The notes under the pieces were generated by a model, which did no database searches, had not been told where the DNA came from, and was given only the letters and a program-made list of their open reading frames with translations. Below are positions 28,433 through 42,292 of a stretch of 64,000 bases of DNA, one piece after another. A program made the position numbers and the translations under genes. This stretch comes from Thermodesulfobacteriota bacterium (lineage in GTDB: Bacteria; Desulfobacterota; Desulfobaccia; Desulfobaccales; 0-14-0-80-60-11): assembly GCA_040757175.1 (NCBI GenBank), contig JBFLXM010000049.1, positions 29,532 through 93,531 on the forward strand. The letters run 5' to 3'. Each line of letters opens with the position of its first letter. The first letter of the stretch is position 1.

Positions 28433-28509
28433 TGGTCGGGACGAGAGGATTTGAACCTCCGACCCCCTGAACCCCATTCAGGTGCGCTACCAGTCTGCGC
28501 CACGTCCCG
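28433..28509 (-). tRNA. tRNA-Pro (anticodon GGG)
   Basis: Minus strand reads CGGGACG-TG-GCGCAGACTGGTAGCGC-A-CCTGA-ATGGGGT-TCAGG-GGGTC-GGAGG-TTCAAAT-CCTCT-CGTCCCG-A-CCA. Confidence 0.9.
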
Positions 28510-30578: not shown

Positions 30579-31292
30579 GTGCCGGTAATGCAAAACCCGC
30601 TCTGTTCCCTGACCGAGTGCCCCTTTGGGGCTGAAGATTGCCCTCTGTGCGCGGAAGTTCAACGTCTGCGAAGTGAGTGCGATCGCCTCCATGAACTGTC
30701 CCACACCGACTCCCTCACCGGAGTTTTCAACCGGCGCTATTTGATGATCGCCCTGGACCAGGAAAGGGAGCGGACCCGGCGCACCGGCCTCCCCACCAGC
30801 CTGATCATGATCGATCTGGATCATTTCAAGCGGATCAACGACACCTATGGCCATCACGCGGGAGATGAGGCCCTCAAGTGGGCCAGTCAGTTGTGGCGGA
30901 AGAATTTGCGGCGCATCGATATTCTCTGCCGTTACGGGGGTGAAGAATTTGCCGTTATCCTTCCCGGGACCCGTCTTCAGGCCGCAGTGCGGGCAGCCAA
31001 GCGCCTGCAGACTACCATGCAACAATCGCCCCTGACCCTGCTGGGCCGGAAGGTAACTCTGACCGCCAGTTTTGGGGTGGATACTTTCCTGTACACGGAA
31101 GAACTGACGTCCCGGGCTTTCATCAAACGGGCTGACAAGTTTTTACTGGAGGCCAAGATCAAGGGCCGCAACCAGGTATGTTGCCGGAAACCGGAGAAAG
31201 CCAAACAGACCATGGAAGTCACCGTGGACGAAAGGACGGCGCTCTTTGGCGGCGGCATCCTGCCCCAACGGGGGGCGGCGCGCAAGAAATAA
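30579..31292 (+). CDS. Diguanylate cyclase (GGDEF) with a short Cys-rich N-terminus
   Basis: RYGGEEFAV active site. RRID I-site 5 residues upstream. N-terminal CSLTECPFGAEDCPLCAEV. Confidence 0.85.
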   Translation: MPVMQNPLCSLTECPFGAEDCPLCAEVQRLRSECDRLHELSHTDSLTGVFNRRYLMIALDQERERTRRTGLPTSLIMIDLDHFKRINDTYGHHAGDEALKWASQLWRKNLRRIDILCRYGGEEFAVILPGTRLQAAVRAAKRLQTTMQQSPLTLLGRKVTLTASFGVDTFLYTEELTSRAFIKRADKFLLEAKIKGRNQVCCRKPEKAKQTMEVTVDERTALFGGGILPQRGAARKK

Positions 31293-31314
31293 ACCTCTAT
31301 AAGGGGCTGAAGTT

Positions 31315-32130
31315 ATGGCAGAAATAACCAGGCACAACTCCCTCAAACCCATGATGGCCTGCATAAGCAGCGGCAAGGGTGGCGTGGGGAAGACCAGCCT
31401 GACGGTGAACCTGGCCTTTTCCTTGGCGCAAAAGGGTCTCAGAGTGCTAGTGGTGGACGGCGATCTCGGACTGGCCAACGTGGACGTGCTGCTGGGCCTC
31501 CAGGTGCAAACCACCATCAACGACATCCTGGACCGGGATGCCGACCCCCTGGAAGCGGTAGTCTATGTGGAGCCGCGCCTGGGTATCCTGCCCGCCAGCT
31601 CCGGAGTGCCTGACCTGGCCAAGCTCGGGCCGGAGGATCACCGGCAACTGGGCAGCATTTTGCTCCCCATCACCCGGCATTTCGATTTCGTCCTGGTGGA
31701 TACCGCCGCGGGCATCGGCTCCTCGGTGCTTTGGTTCAACACCTTCGTGGATTATAATATCCTGCTGCTCACTCCCGACCCCACCGCCATGACCGACGCC
31801 TATGCCCTGATCAAGGTCCTGTCCCGGGACTATCACCGGCAGACCTTCCACTTGCTCCTGAACCAGGTCAAGAACGAAGCCGAAGCCCGCCAGGTTTACG
31901 ACCATCTGGCCCGGGTGGCTTCCCATTTCCTAAACCTGAACCTGGAGTACCTGGGCGCGGTGCCCCATGATGCCTCGGTGAGCAAGGGGGTGCGCCATCA
32001 GAAGCCTTTCATCAAGGTTGCCCCCCACAGCAAGGCGGCCATGGCCATTTCCAGCCTGGCCGAGCGCCTCAAGGGTTGGGTCCCCCAAAAATCAGCGTCC
32101 CGGAAAACCGTGGGGGAAGCAGGGGGTTGA
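31315..32130 (+). CDS. MinD/ParA-family P-loop ATPase (FlhG/YlxH-like)
   Basis: SSGKGGVGKTSLTVNLA deviant Walker A. VDGDLGLANVDVLLG. Confidence 0.8.
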   Translation: MAEITRHNSLKPMMACISSGKGGVGKTSLTVNLAFSLAQKGLRVLVVDGDLGLANVDVLLGLQVQTTINDILDRDADPLEAVVYVEPRLGILPASSGVPDLAKLGPEDHRQLGSILLPITRHFDFVLVDTAAGIGSSVLWFNTFVDYNILLLTPDPTAMTDAYALIKVLSRDYHRQTFHLLLNQVKNEAEARQVYDHLARVASHFLNLNLEYLGAVPHDASVSKGVRHQKPFIKVAPHSKAAMAISSLAERLKGWVPQKSASRKTVGEAGG

Positions 32131-38113: not shown

Positions 38114-38368
38114 ATGAAGGGTCTATTTAATAAAATCAAGAACTTGCCTACCCGCCGACGTTTTGTGGTCTCCACCATTCGCAAGGAAGACAACACCTTT
38201 GAGACCGCGGTTTTTGAGGCTAATTTTTTCTACCTGCCCCGGAGCTGGTCCCAGCCGGCACTGGTGGTGGCCACGGCTACCCAGGATGAGGCTTGGGATA
38301 CCCATTACCTGCTGACGGTCAGGTTGACCAAGGAATATCCCCTCCGCATTTTTCAAGAATATTCTTGA
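38114..38368 (+). CDS. Hypothetical protein (84 aa)
   Basis: ORF only. No family recognised and no clear RBS. Confidence 0.35.
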   Translation: MKGLFNKIKNLPTRRRFVVSTIRKEDNTFETAVFEANFFYLPRSWSQPALVVATATQDEAWDTHYLLTVRLTKEYPLRIFQEYS

Positions 38369-38507
38369 TTTTTTCCCGATGGAAAATTATGCCGCAGCCG
38401 CCTCTATGAGGGCTCTGGCCCCCACTATTTGCGGGTCTTACCGGAAACGCGCCGGATTAAAGATTTATGGAAGGAATGCCGATAGAAACATAAAATAGCT
38501 TAGTATT

Positions 38508-38606
38508 GTTGCTAGGCATCGAAAGGGCAAACTACTCCGAAAGGGTAGGACGCAAAGTCTCCGACCTACAGCCCCTGGGCCACGGTAGCGGGATTGCCGA
38601 AATGCA
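38508..38606 (+). promoter_or_regulatory. c-di-GMP-I (GEMM-I) riboswitch aptamer
   Basis: AAGGGCAAACTACTCCGAAAGGGTAGGACGCAAAGTCTCCGACCTACAGCCCC...ACGGTAGCGGGATTGCCGAAATGC. Matches the conserved GGCAAAC / GAAA tetraloop / GGACGCAAAG-CUCCG-CCUA / GGUAGCGGGGUU-CCGA blocks of GEMM-I. Confidence 0.85.
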
Positions 38607-38623
38607 TGGGCGATCTGTGTTGC

Positions 38624-38659
38624 TAGGGGCTCGACTTTGGTCGGCCCCTTTCATTTTTC
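38624..38659 (+). terminator. Intrinsic terminator forming the riboswitch expression platform
   Basis: AGGGGCTCGAC-TTTG-GTCGGCCCCT stem with one bulge, followed by TTCATTTTT. Confidence 0.7.
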
Positions 38660-38748: not shown

Positions 38749-39261
38749 ATGAGACTGATGATGCCGGCAAAGAAAAGGCCAGGGAAATCAAGGCGGGAAA
38801 CAGGCAGCGTCGTCATGGAGATGGCCCTGGTATTGCCCGTCTTGCTGTTGATGGTGGCCGGCACCATCGACATCGGCCTCCTTTTTTGGGAAAAGGAGGT
38901 CCTCACCAACGCCGCCCGGGAGGGCGCCCGGGCTGCGGCCCGGGCCCAGATCAGCGGCAGGCCGGAACAAACCACCAAGGCCGCGGTCATGGCCATAGTC
39001 CAGGCTTACCTGAATAATTACAACTTGCGGGATGATTCCGGGGTCCCCATAACCCTGGTGAATGGCACCAATTTTATCTACGAGTGGGACTTTGGCAATA
39101 ATCCTCCCATATTGTCAGTGGAACTCAAGGATATACCGGTCAAGATGCTGATGCTCCCCAATGTCAGCAAGCCATGTTGGGGGACATTCAGCAATGTTTA
39201 CTATTTAAACGCCAAGACCACCATGGCGCCGCAGTGGTTAAGCACTTTTCCCCCGACTTAA
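38749..39261 (+). CDS. TadE-like protein (Flp/Tad pilus pseudopilin-type)
   Basis: ETGSVVMEMALVLPVLLLMVAGTIDIGLLFWEKEVLTNAAREGARAA, a typical TadE N-terminus. Start inside track ORF 38506..39261. Confidence 0.75.
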   Translation: MRLMMPAKKRPGKSRRETGSVVMEMALVLPVLLLMVAGTIDIGLLFWEKEVLTNAAREGARAAARAQISGRPEQTTKAAVMAIVQAYLNNYNLRDDSGVPITLVNGTNFIYEWDFGNNPPILSVELKDIPVKMLMLPNVSKPCWGTFSNVYYLNAKTTMAPQWLSTFPPT

Positions 39262-39323
39262 GGTTTATTCATTTCCCCCGTTACTGGCCCAAGCCTGGGG
39301 GCGGAAAAAAGGAGGACAGGTTG

Positions 39324-40706
39324 ATGAAAAGGTTTAGGTTTTTTAGCGCTCCCCCAGGGGAACGGGGCTCCATTACCCCGATTGTCGCCTTGGGCCTGGT
39401 GGCTTTTGCCGGGTTTATGGCTTTGTCCATCGACCTGGGCCAGCTCTATCTGGTGAAGAACGAGGTGCAAAACGTGGCGGACGCCGCGGCCCTGGCCGCA
39501 GCCAAGAAGCTGATCCAGGACAAAAACGGCGACGGGGTGGCGGAAGTTTACTGCGCGGAGGCCATCCAGGCCGCCATTGACTACGCCAAAGAAAATTCCT
39601 CGTTCGGAGTCACTTCTCCCATCGCCATCACTGAGACCGATGTCACCATCGGCAAATGGAATCTGGCCACCAAGCAGTTCGACGCCACCGGCTGCACCGA
39701 CGGCACCACCACCGCCATCCAGGTAAATGCCGTGCAGGTGACGGTCAACCGGGCGGGGGGTGAAGGTGGCAATGACAAGGTGTCCACCTTTTTCGGGAGT
39801 GTGATGGGCGTGGGCACCCGGGATACAGATCCGGACACTTTGATAGAGACCGGTCCCCCCAAACTGAGCGTGGCCGCCTCCTCGGTGGCCATGCTGGGGC
39901 TGGCGGGCACCAGCGCCCTGGATCTCCCCTTCGCGGTGTCCACCAATTGGCCCGCGGGAGGAACGCCCACTGCCTCCAACGGCATCCACCGCCTCCTGGA
40001 GAAGTTCGCCCCCTCCCCGGCCTATGCCAGTGATCCCCAAACCTACACCTGGAAGGACCTGGGGGGCAGCAACCTGGACACCACCAGGGCCACCTTTGTC
40101 ATGCCCTTATACTCGGAGCGCACCAGCCTGACCAAACTGCAGCAGTACATCAAGGGGCCGACCGTTTCCGGAGGACTTCAGTATCCCCAGGTGACGGTGG
40201 GCCAGAAGGTCTATCCCATCAGCGAATATCTCTGGGGGTCCAATATCAAAAACAATTTCAACTACATGAAAACCCGGTTTACCGCGGTTGATAAAACCAA
40301 GACGAACGGCAAGTGGCGGGTGACCGCGGCGGTCTATAACACCACCCCGGTGACCTCGGCTCTGCCCCAGGATTCCTGGTATAAGCTGGCCTCCAGGCTC
40401 CTGCCCGGAGTCTCCCAGGCCCATGCCTGCATGTCTTACACCGTGCCTGCGGTCTATGTCCAGGGTTTCATCGAACTGGATGTGACGAATGTTGTCTGTC
40501 CTTCAACCTGCACCACCGGCGATCAATCGTATTCCACCAGTTGCCGTAACCAATGCTATGCCACGGTTGAGGTGCCGTTGAACCAGAACACCGTCAGCAC
40601 GGATAAGGGAAGCAACCCCATTCCTTATCAAAAGGATTATAAGGACATGAATTCCACGGCCAATAAGGTGGGAGTCTTTGCCTCGGTGCCGCGGTTGGTG
40701 AAGTAA
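39324..40706 (+). CDS. TadG-like large secreted/pilus-associated protein with a Cys-rich C-terminus
   Basis: ERGSITPIVALGLVAFAGFMALSIDLGQLYLVKNEVQNVADAAALAAA (TadE/G-like N-terminus). AAGGAGG RBS. C-terminal CPSTCTTGDQSYSTSCRNQC. Confidence 0.7.
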   Translation: MKRFRFFSAPPGERGSITPIVALGLVAFAGFMALSIDLGQLYLVKNEVQNVADAAALAAAKKLIQDKNGDGVAEVYCAEAIQAAIDYAKENSSFGVTSPIAITETDVTIGKWNLATKQFDATGCTDGTTTAIQVNAVQVTVNRAGGEGGNDKVSTFFGSVMGVGTRDTDPDTLIETGPPKLSVAASSVAMLGLAGTSALDLPFAVSTNWPAGGTPTASNGIHRLLEKFAPSPAYASDPQTYTWKDLGGSNLDTTRATFVMPLYSERTSLTKLQQYIKGPTVSGGLQYPQVTVGQKVYPISEYLWGSNIKNNFNYMKTRFTAVDKTKTNGKWRVTAAVYNTTPVTSALPQDSWYKLASRLLPGVSQAHACMSYTVPAVYVQGFIELDVTNVVCPSTCTTGDQSYSTSCRNQCYATVEVPLNQNTVSTDKGSNPIPYQKDYKDMNSTANKVGVFASVPRLVK

Positions 40707-40788: not shown

Positions 40789-40829
40789 GGGGGAGACGGC
40801 CCTGGGGCTGCCTCCCCCGGGTTTTTTTT
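40789..40829 (+). terminator. Rho-independent terminator
   Basis: GGGGGAG...CTCCCCC stem followed by a T8 run. The T-run overlaps the stop of the convergent mgtC-like gene. Confidence 0.6.
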
Positions 40830-41505: not shown

Positions 41506-41605
41506 CTTTGCATCCTAGTGGTCAGGTTTGAAAGCAATTTTTCTAACAAAAAACCGGTTAAAAGAAATCCTTGTTCCCGTTTTGGGATCATGTTATGTTG
41601 TTGCC

Positions 41606-41899
41606 ATGCGGGTCATTTCCCGAAAGACCCTCAAGGAATTTTGGGAACAGCATCCAGAGGCGGAGCAGGCGCTCAGGGCTTGGTATGCCGATGTCAAGAG
41701 AGCCGTTTGGAAGTCCCCGGCCGATATCAAAAAAGTCTACCGGAACGTTAGTTTTGTGGCCGGCAACCGCGTGGTTTTTAATATCAAAGGCAACACTTAC
41801 CGCCTGGTGGCGATGATTCACTATGAGTTTGGCATTGTCTTTATTCGCTTTGTCGGGACCCATGGCGATTACGATCGTATTAATGCCGCCACGGTCTGA
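41606..41899 (+). CDS. higB: Type II toxin HigB (mRNA interferase, HigB_toxin family)
   Basis: MRVISRKTLKEFWEQHPEAEQALRAWY...FNIKGNTYRLVAMIHYEFGIVFIRFVGTHGDYDRI. Start inside track ORF 41528..41899. Confidence 0.8.
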   Translation: MRVISRKTLKEFWEQHPEAEQALRAWYADVKRAVWKSPADIKKVYRNVSFVAGNRVVFNIKGNTYRLVAMIHYEFGIVFIRFVGTHGDYDRINAATV

Positions 41900-41914
41900 C
41901 CGGAGGTCAAAATC

Positions 41915-42292
41915 ATGAACATCAGGCCCCTTAGGACGGAAAAGGACCACCAAGCTGCGTTGCAAGAGGTGGAGCGTCTTTTCCATGCCTCCCCCAACAC
42001 GCCGGAGGGTGACCTCCTGGAAGTGTTGACCACTCTTATCGAGGCTTATGAAGATAAACACCATGACATCCCCTGGCCGGACCCCATAGCCGCCATTCTC
42101 TATACTATGGAGAGTCGCGGCCTTGCCCGCCGGGACCTGGAGCCATACATCGGCAGCCGCGCCAGGGTTTCCGAAGTCCTCAGCCGGAAGCGCCCGCTCT
42201 CCATTGAGATGATACGAAAGCTCCATGCCGGTCTGGGCATCCCCGCGGAGGTCCTGATCCAGCCTTATCCGTTGGCAAAGTCTGCCGCGTGA
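41915..42292 (+). CDS. higA: HigA-type HTH antitoxin
   Basis: Lies 15 nt after higB. IRPLRTEKDHQAALQEVERL...LSRKRPLSIEMIRKLHAGLGIPAEVLI (Xre-type HTH at the C-terminus). Confidence 0.8.
   Translation: MNIRPLRTEKDHQAALQEVERLFHASPNTPEGDLLEVLTTLIEAYEDKHHDIPWPDPIAAILYTMESRGLARRDLEPYIGSRARVSEVLSRKRPLSIEMIRKLHAGLGIPAEVLIQPYPLAKSAA

Follow-up and report, generated by a model that had tools for sequence, protein, structure and literature searches.

The 64,000-nucleotide stretch of a Desulfobaccales genome analysed here (in the following, the window) contains a two-gene operon that encodes a TadE-type protein and a large TadG/CpaL-type protein and is preceded by a riboswitch of the c-di-GMP-I class. 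We consider it probable that this locus is a detached tip/initiation cassette of Tad (type IVc, Flp) pili that forms its own transcription unit and is gated by the riboswitch in response to cyclic di-GMP (c-di-GMP). From the evidence laid out below we infer the tip role of the two proteins, their reliance on a Tad system encoded elsewhere and the sign of the regulation. The elements of the locus are the following:

38457..38496, + strand, promoter-like region with TTAAAG (38457-38462), the box TGCCGATA (38477-38484) and TAAAAT (38491-38496)
38516..38605, + strand, c-di-GMP-I (GEMM-I) aptamer including the P1 3' strand AUGC (38602-38605); Rfam RF01051 match at 38516-38601
38609..38624, + strand, predicted switching (anti-aptamer) strand GGCGAUCU, complementary to the aptamer 3' strand GGAUUGCC
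38625..38658, + strand, intrinsic terminator of the leader, AGGGGCUCGAC-UUUG-GUCGGCCCCU followed by UUCAUUUUU
38749..39261, + strand, TadE-type minor pilin, 170 aa (Pfam TadE, PF07811)
39310..39315, + strand, Shine-Dalgarno sequence AGGAGG of the second gene, 8 nt upstream of its start, read from the sequence
39324..40706, + strand, TadG/CpaL-type large minor pilin, 460 aa (Pfam Tad and Tad_C)
40801..40829, + strand, terminator of the operon, a GC-rich hairpin of 7 bp with a T8 run behind it (consensus scan)

An earlier reading of the sequence without database searches (the original prediction) had described a riboswitch followed by a TadE-like protein of 170 aa and a protein of 460 aa as its only cargo. 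Both points were borne out. The aptamer matches RF01051 over the full model (positions 1-87) and scores 73.3 bits where the gathering score is 35 (E = 1.8e-12), and between riboswitch and terminator the operon carries only the TadE-like gene and the Tad/Tad_C gene, as recognised by Pfam TadE, Tad and Tad_C. The terminator of the operon had been placed at 40789; it is present, with its position at 40801-40829, close to the one given, and it separates the cassette from a convergent gene assigned by Pfam to MgtC. The terminator in the leader (38625-38658) had been missed.

The smaller protein is, as far as its sequence tells, a conventional minor pilin with a predicted cleavable G↓xxxxE leader. 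It matches TadE over residues 19-61 (5e-16, 59 bits, gathering score 22.9), and its prepilin-peptidase site reads RRETG↓SVVME with Glu at +5. The Flp-type site R-x-x-G↓x-x-x-x-E is kept in all 19 TadE orthologues, in which the G and Glu+5 are invariant.

The larger protein has, judged in the same way, the architecture of the apical pilin TadG/CpaL. Pfam Tad (PF13400; 9e-14, 52 bits) covers residues 15-60 and Tad_C (8e-7, 30.4 bits, gathering score 22.1) residues 71-167. In the alignment of the large protein G15↓SITPI is conserved and Glu+5 is thus missing, which is the mark of an apical subunit (PMC13533445). TadG/CpaL is the PilK/GspK analogue of Tad pili, with no Glu+5 and with a large insertion (PMC13533445). 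The protein described here has an N-terminal helix; a pilin-like module, Tad_C, follows at about residues 70-200, then a clade-specific module of about 260 aa with conserved cysteines and, finally, a terminal strand motif. TadG of Aggregatibacter and CpaL of Caulobacter likewise combine a Tad-type helix without Glu+5 with a pilin-like Tad_C module (PMC13533445, PMC12607857), have a large insertion between the pilin module and the C-terminal strand, and are adjoined by a TadE-type gene. However, CpaL carries a vWA insert (von Willebrand factor A) (PMC12607857), whereas the insert here, unlike that of CpaL and of many TadG proteins, matches no vWA/MIDAS (metal ion-dependent adhesion site) family in Pfam or NCBIfam and, with its approximately 260 aa, has no neighbour in the PDB. 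It also differs from TadG/CpaL in that the gene lies outside a tad locus and has a single companion minor pilin.

Residues 170-460 match no Pfam or NCBIfam family. This agrees with the original prediction, which had left this part without a family and had pointed to a Cys cluster at its end; the Cys-rich stretch, CPSTCTTGDQSYSTSCRNQC, is present, and Cys residues are nearly invariant at positions 77, 124, 369, 396 and 407 of the family. A profile search of 1.84 billion cluster representatives gave 28,011 matching proteins. Positions 1-196 were common to most of the best-scoring ones, and only 11 of the 150 best cluster-representative matches to the large-protein profile were full length. Since the N-terminal ~196 positions are matched widely and the full length rarely, the protein apparently joins a common pilin-like module to a rare, clade-specific one. 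AlphaFold2, whose use on the large protein the original prediction had suggested, gave a confident model (pLDDT (predicted local distance difference test) 85.4, pTM (predicted template modelling score) 0.79; alignment of 81 sequences), with strands at 107-206 (pLDDT 81-96) and a last C-terminal block of about 95. The family profile had no match in PDB sequences at E ≤ 1, and with an earlier model of pLDDT 63.7 a Foldseek search of the PDB found nothing better than E = 0.5.

The C terminus of the large protein is nearly invariant, VG(V/N)FA(S/A)VP(R/Y/F)LVK, and ends with VPRLVK in the window. TadG/CpaL donates its own extreme C-terminal β-strand, which is needed for piliation (PMC13533445), and by analogy the VPRLVK strand probably completes the pilin sheet of the large protein in cis. 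The terminal P-x-L-V-x is common to many TadG-like open reading frames (ORFs) of other loci (about 30 by our reading), which come from Desulfuromonadales, Chlorobiaceae, Burkholderiales, Nitrospirae, Geomonas and others; most of them have a CpaF-like ORF within 10 kb. Among the TadG-like C termini of loci L004-L080 (loci compared here are numbered L001 and so on) two classes can be told apart, P-x-L-V-(K/E/Q/D/R) and (I/V)(R/K)LYR. The latter is found in about nine proteins of 450-540 aa, mostly from Betaproteobacteria, and the classes may represent two flavours of the cis β-strand.

Minor-pilin complexes prime the assembly of type IV filaments. By analogy, the two proteins of the cassette would cap and prime a Flp filament that is built by machinery encoded elsewhere. 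The 170-aa TadE-type protein would be a minor pilin within the tip complex and the 460-aa protein its apical subunit, above which, lacking Glu+5, nothing is expected; the clade-specific module of about 260 aa would then be displayed at the pilus tip. Because the two proteins would cap and prime the filament, control of the operon would gate piliation or tip identity, that is, whether pili start or which tip they carry, with the Flp pilin and the machinery supplied from elsewhere. Minor-pilin genes that lie apart from the machinery have a precedent in Myxococcus xanthus, where three of the four TadE/F/G-like Tip clusters are not part of the kil loci and any single cluster is enough for the pilus to polymerise (PMC12075869). 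The Tip1-3 clusters of the Kil system (KilL/M/N) resemble the cassette in that their TadE/F/G-like minor-pilin genes are apart from the machinery and in that the tips are proposed to be interchangeable, priming the pilus and displaying a variable domain, as proposed here (PMC12075869). However, the Kil tips are trios that are tied to predation and the T3SS* (type III secretion system), and no riboswitch has been reported for them. The cassette described here consists of two genes (three in some relatives), has one copy at a fixed locus and is gated by a riboswitch.

The original prediction had seen no Tad machinery in the window, and this holds: a Pfam search of ~60 ORFs on both strands revealed no T2SSE/CpaF, TadB/C, secretin, RcpC or A24 peptidase gene, and a motif scan no Flp-type pilin. 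Neither is there a tad locus directly adjacent to the cassette, whether one looks at the window or at the 10 kb around the related loci examined; an ORF and motif scan found no CpaF-like ORF and no Flp-type motif within 10 kb of any close-family locus. For comparison, 51 of 77 generic TadG-like loci have a CpaF-type ORF (428-517 aa, with a CpaF-type Walker A motif) within 10 kb. These 77 loci, from many phyla, came from a genome scan with the full-length alignment that picked generic N-terminal patterns and gave only three true family loci; the generic loci became the comparison set. One of the ORFs was confirmed as CpaF.

The lack of Tad machinery in the 64-kb window and of CpaF-like ORFs or Flp-type motifs within 10 kb in the close family could also mean that the pair serves no Tad pilus at all, but another type IV filament (similar to the type IVa pilus (T4aP) or the type II secretion system (T2SS)), or that it is a stand-alone, membrane-anchored pair in the envelope or at the surface. 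An exposed module without fold neighbour in the PDB would fit such a view. We regard it as improbable. The Flp-type G↓xxxxE is invariant in TadE of 19 orthologues, proteins of loci with a CpaF-like ORF have the same TadG-specific C-terminal motif, and for detached Tip clusters there is the precedent mentioned above (PMC12075869). Moreover, remote members of the family share an operon with Flp pilins, and comparable cassettes headed by a riboswitch lie next to genes for A24 peptidase, RcpC and secretin. An independent surface structure had also been considered in the original prediction, but nothing that we found supports it.

These links to Flp pili are seen in a remote subfamily (~30-35% identity), which retains the riboswitch in L087 and L115, and beyond. 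In L115 (5726-11103) the riboswitch is followed by an HD-GYP-like gene, TadE, a Tad/Tad_C gene of 335 aa, TadE, the family TadG and a Flp pilin. A chromosome of the Nitrospirales (OZ245001.1, L010, 4293-14461) has two GEMM-I elements, each heading a Flp-TadE-TadG cassette; the two cassettes are in series and lie immediately upstream of A24 prepilin peptidase, RcpC and secretin genes, which looks like riboswitch control at the head of a full tad locus. The custom covariance model that hit this chromosome also placed an aptamer, on a contig of the Planctomycetaceae, directly 5' of a TadG-like gene. Two features of the remote loci may be mentioned here. The first gene after the riboswitch of L115 encodes an HD-GYP-like (HD_5) protein and could form a c-di-GMP feedback loop. 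L087 (6009-17392) holds, within 12 kb, three pairs of TadE and TadG-like genes, of which the first alone has a riboswitch, besides a phage-integrase ORF and a weak PilZ ORF; tip cassettes may be mobile or undergoing duplication in this region.

In the close family, a clade of sulfate-reducer relatives, the association of cassette and riboswitch is conserved. The large protein is identical to a protein from a metagenome-assembled genome (MAG) at NCBI, and a homologue search gave 99 matches, roughly 90 of them with 44-100% identity to the query; the named homologues are from MAGs or metagenomes of Desulfobaccales, Desulfobacca, Syntrophobacterales and Syntrophales. Of the 18 close-family loci including the window, 17 have a c-di-GMP-I aptamer 5' of the TadE gene (Rfam, 72-79 bits), a count that covers the loci with enough upstream DNA and includes several near-duplicates, the number of independent lineages being closer to ten. 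Three loci have two complete aptamers in tandem, about 230 nt apart (L090, 8256-8575; L093, 235-554; L101, 8239-8558). The order of genes on long contigs is GT21 glycosyltransferase, HAD hydrolase, in some cases thioredoxin, S11 DD-carboxypeptidase, an ORF of 84-86 aa, a gap with the riboswitch, TadE and the TadG-like gene, followed on its 3' side by MgtC or the lpx-bamA cluster. The pair is not one that occurs widely without a riboswitch and among unrelated neighbours; 17 of 18 loci have the riboswitch and synteny is fixed. Some close relatives (L081, L095-L098, L103/L104) have a third Tad/Tad_C gene (331-349 aa) before or after the large gene and thereby a classical trio, whereas the window has a duo.

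As the cassette has just two of the dozen or so genes that a tad locus usually holds, one could think of it as what is left of such a locus in decay, riboswitch included, but this is hardly conceivable. The ORFs are intact in the roughly 90 homologues at 44-100% identity. Compared with L001, a 90%-identical orthologue, dN/dS is 0.37 for the first gene and 0.22 for the second, and the overall range of 0.22-0.47 indicates purifying selection on both. In addition, the processing and C-terminal motifs are invariant, the aptamer is kept with compensatory changes, and the cassette retains its chromosomal position throughout the clade. Altogether, the proposal of the original prediction that a gated minor-pilin or tip pair works for a Tad pilus encoded elsewhere is consistent with the TadE motif, the TadG/CpaL architecture, the riboswitch in 17 of 18 loci and the Flp-linked remote relatives.

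The aptamer itself is well preserved. In the helices of 22 related aptamers 98.7% of the pair cells are standard pairs, compared to 17-49% in slid controls of the alignment, and six pairs are altered on both sides, a number reached by none of 500 shuffles; the 22 aptamers are closely related and hold few independent covariation events. P1 covaries between the two types of leader described below (GCAU/AUGC versus CAC/GUG). The selectivity nucleotide is a G at position 11 of the Rfam model (38526), equivalent to G20 of Vc2, a mapping that stems from our own Vc2 numbering and agrees with 'G11' in Cd1. This G is found in the window and in 20 of the 22 related aptamers, and the equivalent of C92, which in the window lies within GCCGAA, is retained. 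G20 and C92 define the recognition of c-di-GMP (PMC6140456), whereas A at position 20 defines that of cGAMP, and the exchange A20G converts the selectivity to c-di-GMP (PMC6140456, PMC6456294). Since the selectivity nucleotide is G, C92 is kept and the cGAMP-sensing GEMM-Ib RNAs carry A, the ligand should, by sequence, be c-di-GMP. The host belongs to the former Deltaproteobacteria, in which GEMM-Ib is common, and one may ask whether the aptamer senses 3',3'-cGAMP as in Geobacter. As the selectivity nucleotide of the window and of 20 of the 22 relatives is G, where cGAMP riboswitches have A, we consider this very unlikely.

Upstream of the aptamer, the region 38457-38496 would act as promoter, and TAAAAT at 38491-38496 is likely its -10 element. 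All eight leaders inspected have a box of the form xGCCGATA about 35 nt 5' of the aptamer, followed in type-A leaders by TAAAAT; the box, TGCCGATA in the window, may be an operator or promoter element that adds control at the protein level to that by the riboswitch. Leaders of type A, those of the window and nine other loci, consist of the aptamer, the element GGC(R)(A/U)UCU and a terminator. The terminator is found in all ten type-A loci, of which nine were modelled; its stem (-17.7 to -18.7 kcal/mol) is kept despite sequence changes in L090, L091, L093 and L101, and in the window it is likely the expression platform. All nine terminator-type leaders have the element GGC(R)(A/U)UCU; it is complementary to GGAUUGCC, the aptamer 3' strand, which includes the ligand-contacting C. 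In unconstrained folds the switching strand GGCGAUCU pairs with the 3' half of the aptamer.

Fold modelling of the nine type-A leaders gave a terminator probability of 0.97-0.98 in all of them when the aptamer was enforced. In the unconstrained ensemble it was at most 0.01 in four, namely the window, L001, L088 and L091. That aptamer and terminator coexist and that both compete with an antiterminator formed from the aptamer 3' strand is the hallmark of the OFF switch Cd1, and the ON switch of pilM differs in this respect (PMC9262584). Because the leader, as modelled, resembles Cd1 rather than pilM, we lean towards an OFF switch, roughly twice as probable in our view as an ON switch, in which binding of c-di-GMP is predicted to cause premature termination. 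With c-di-GMP bound, transcription would terminate and the cassette be off; at low c-di-GMP, the polymerase would read through. The likeness to Cd1, which precedes the flgB operon of Clostridioides difficile, extends to the aptamer class and, in the models, to the coexistence of aptamer and terminator (PMC9262584) and to the use of the aptamer 3' strand with the ligand-contacting C in the antiterminator, the ligand being predicted to favour termination here. However, the cargo of Cd1 are flagellar genes, here they are pilus tip genes, and switching is predicted from models. Unlike in Cd1, several of the orthologous leaders show no fold competition in the thermodynamic models. The GEMM-Ib RNA of Geobacter pilM is also comparable: it is a GEMM-I-family RNA of a former deltaproteobacterium, stands before pilus-related genes and has an intrinsic terminator (PMC9262584, PMC6456294). 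In contrast to the RNA described here, it recognises cGAMP, having A at position 20, works as an ON switch whose folds exclude each other and regulates the T4aP assembly genes pilMNOP, whereas the cassette here encodes Tad minor pilins.

Several observations weigh against a riboswitch-gated Tad tip cassette. Tad machinery, Flp pilin and prepilin peptidase are all unseen within 64 kb. There are only two proteins, where characterised tips have three (TadE/F/G); some relatives do add a third gene. The Foldseek search of the PDB with the model of pLDDT 85.4 gave a best E of 0.7 and nothing at ≤ 0.001, and it recovered neither GspK nor a pilin. One family locus, L100 (8200-10687), has no riboswitch but an AT-rich region of 500 nt in its place, where even a purpose-built covariance model found no aptamer at E ≤ 1. 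There is a second type of leader (type B) without any terminator. Lastly, in the unconstrained ensemble the terminator probability is 0.98 in four of the nine leaders and 0.79 in L103. In these four the terminator is formed in both states, and therefore the switch must be kinetic or the model is incomplete.

The type-B leaders (L003, L081, L083 and L105-L108) are longer (244-363 nt) and have no convincing terminator; they contain a C/U-rich, G-poor tract of ~50 nt, for example in L083 (9170-9450), and precede orthologous cargo. The C/U tract shows partial complementarity to the Shine-Dalgarno region AGGGAGG, and the platform of these leaders may be translational or Rho-dependent.

The same tip cassette could also be under the control of an ON switch. 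High c-di-GMP would then induce the pair, as one would expect for an adhesive tip of the biofilm phase. Tad pili are generally adhesion organelles, and many deltaproteobacterial GEMM-I elements with terminators were listed as ON switches in the survey of Weinberg et al. (2007, PMC1950547), as is the pilM riboswitch (PMC9262584). The four of nine orthologous leaders without OFF behaviour in the thermodynamic model, with L103 being intermediate, fit as well, and the real antiterminator may have been missed. Nevertheless, we think an ON switch rather unlikely, and the leader architecture points to an OFF switch. In ON designs, as far as they are described in the 2007 survey (PMC1950547) and for pilM (PMC9262584), the terminator overlaps the 3' side of the aptamer and the two folds are mutually exclusive. 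Here, the terminator begins 24 nt after P1 and has a probability of at least 0.97 with the aptamer enforced in nine of nine leaders. Furthermore, when we compared the leaders by eye, no conserved pairing of the released switching strand with either half of the terminator was seen. An extended P1 pairing with the 5' leader was also sought, and nothing conserved was found. A direct repeat, GUUGCUAG, that flanks the aptamer in the window was dropped as a candidate, as it is not conserved in orthologues.

Outside the cassette, the window encodes two-component regulators, sulfatases, a P-type ATPase, a GGDEF cyclase, HigBA and housekeeping genes as well as a block of lpxI-lpxA-fabZ-lpxD-ompH-bamA-lolD. 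The GGDEF cyclase stands alone, and the gene after it encodes a MinD/ParA-like P-loop ATPase (30579-32130 for both). The original prediction had drawn attention to the cyclase at 30579, 8 kb upstream. The gene exists, but it is probably unrelated to the cassette and the link looks coincidental; there is no GGDEF gene within ~10 kb upstream in four relatives with called genes, and for this reason the cyclase and the adjoining ATPase were discarded as parts of the system. The ATPase, in addition, has a MinD-like score below every curated cut-off and no TadZ signature. An ORF of 84 aa at 38114-38368 (MKGLFNK...RFVVSTIRK...DEAWDTHY), which matches no Pfam or NCBIfam family, is kept immediately 5' of the riboswitch promoter in L081, L083, L085 and L088. 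A HigB/HigA toxin-antitoxin pair (41528-42292) lies between MgtC and LpxI; in the syntenic L085, MgtC is directly followed by LpxI, and HigBA therefore looks like a strain-specific insertion. A tRNA-Sec gene is found about 7 kb upstream of the cassette in L003 (1790-1883) and L083 (1668-1761), and the window has an ordinary tRNA gene at 28436-28509.

All parts of the system are of known kinds, and the surprise is moderate. That GEMM elements precede genes of Tad and type IV pili (cpaA, pilM/O/Q, pulF) was already on record in 2007 (Weinberg 2007, PMC1950547), but we saw neither TadE nor TadG among the GEMM-associated families in Table 2 of this survey (PMC1950547). In the literature searched on c-di-GMP riboswitches together with TadE, Flp or tad and on pili of Desulfobacca we found no description of a riboswitch-gated tip module. 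What appears to be new is the conserved association of a riboswitch with a TadE/TadG cassette that is detached from the machinery, the clade-specific tip module without vWA and the likely OFF logic at a pilus tip cassette.

It is tempting to go further and to speculate that the cassette is the single checkpoint for Tad piliation, that c-di-GMP, through its direct effect on the RNA, stops the synthesis of the tip/initiation complex upon commitment to the surface, that the tip displays an unseen disulfide-rich fold that sets the substrate of attachment and that this logic recurs independently in Nitrospirales and Planctomycetes. Taken together, we hold this wider proposal to be doubtful; if it were true, a second messenger would license pilus assembly at the tip and not at the motor or the pilin. 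When a Tad pilus starts, and with what tip, is a matter of current interest, in which the role of TadG/CpaL, its C-terminal strand and the interchangeable tips have been described only in 2025-2026. The cassette offers a compact two-gene system for studying tip licensing, and its exposed module is a candidate for a new adhesin or sensor fold. The two designs of leader, with and without terminator, and the tandem versions, all with orthologous cargo, provide a natural comparison set for the evolution of expression platforms. A direct link at the RNA level from c-di-GMP to the tip/initiation complex, kept across an order, would be a simple and testable control point.

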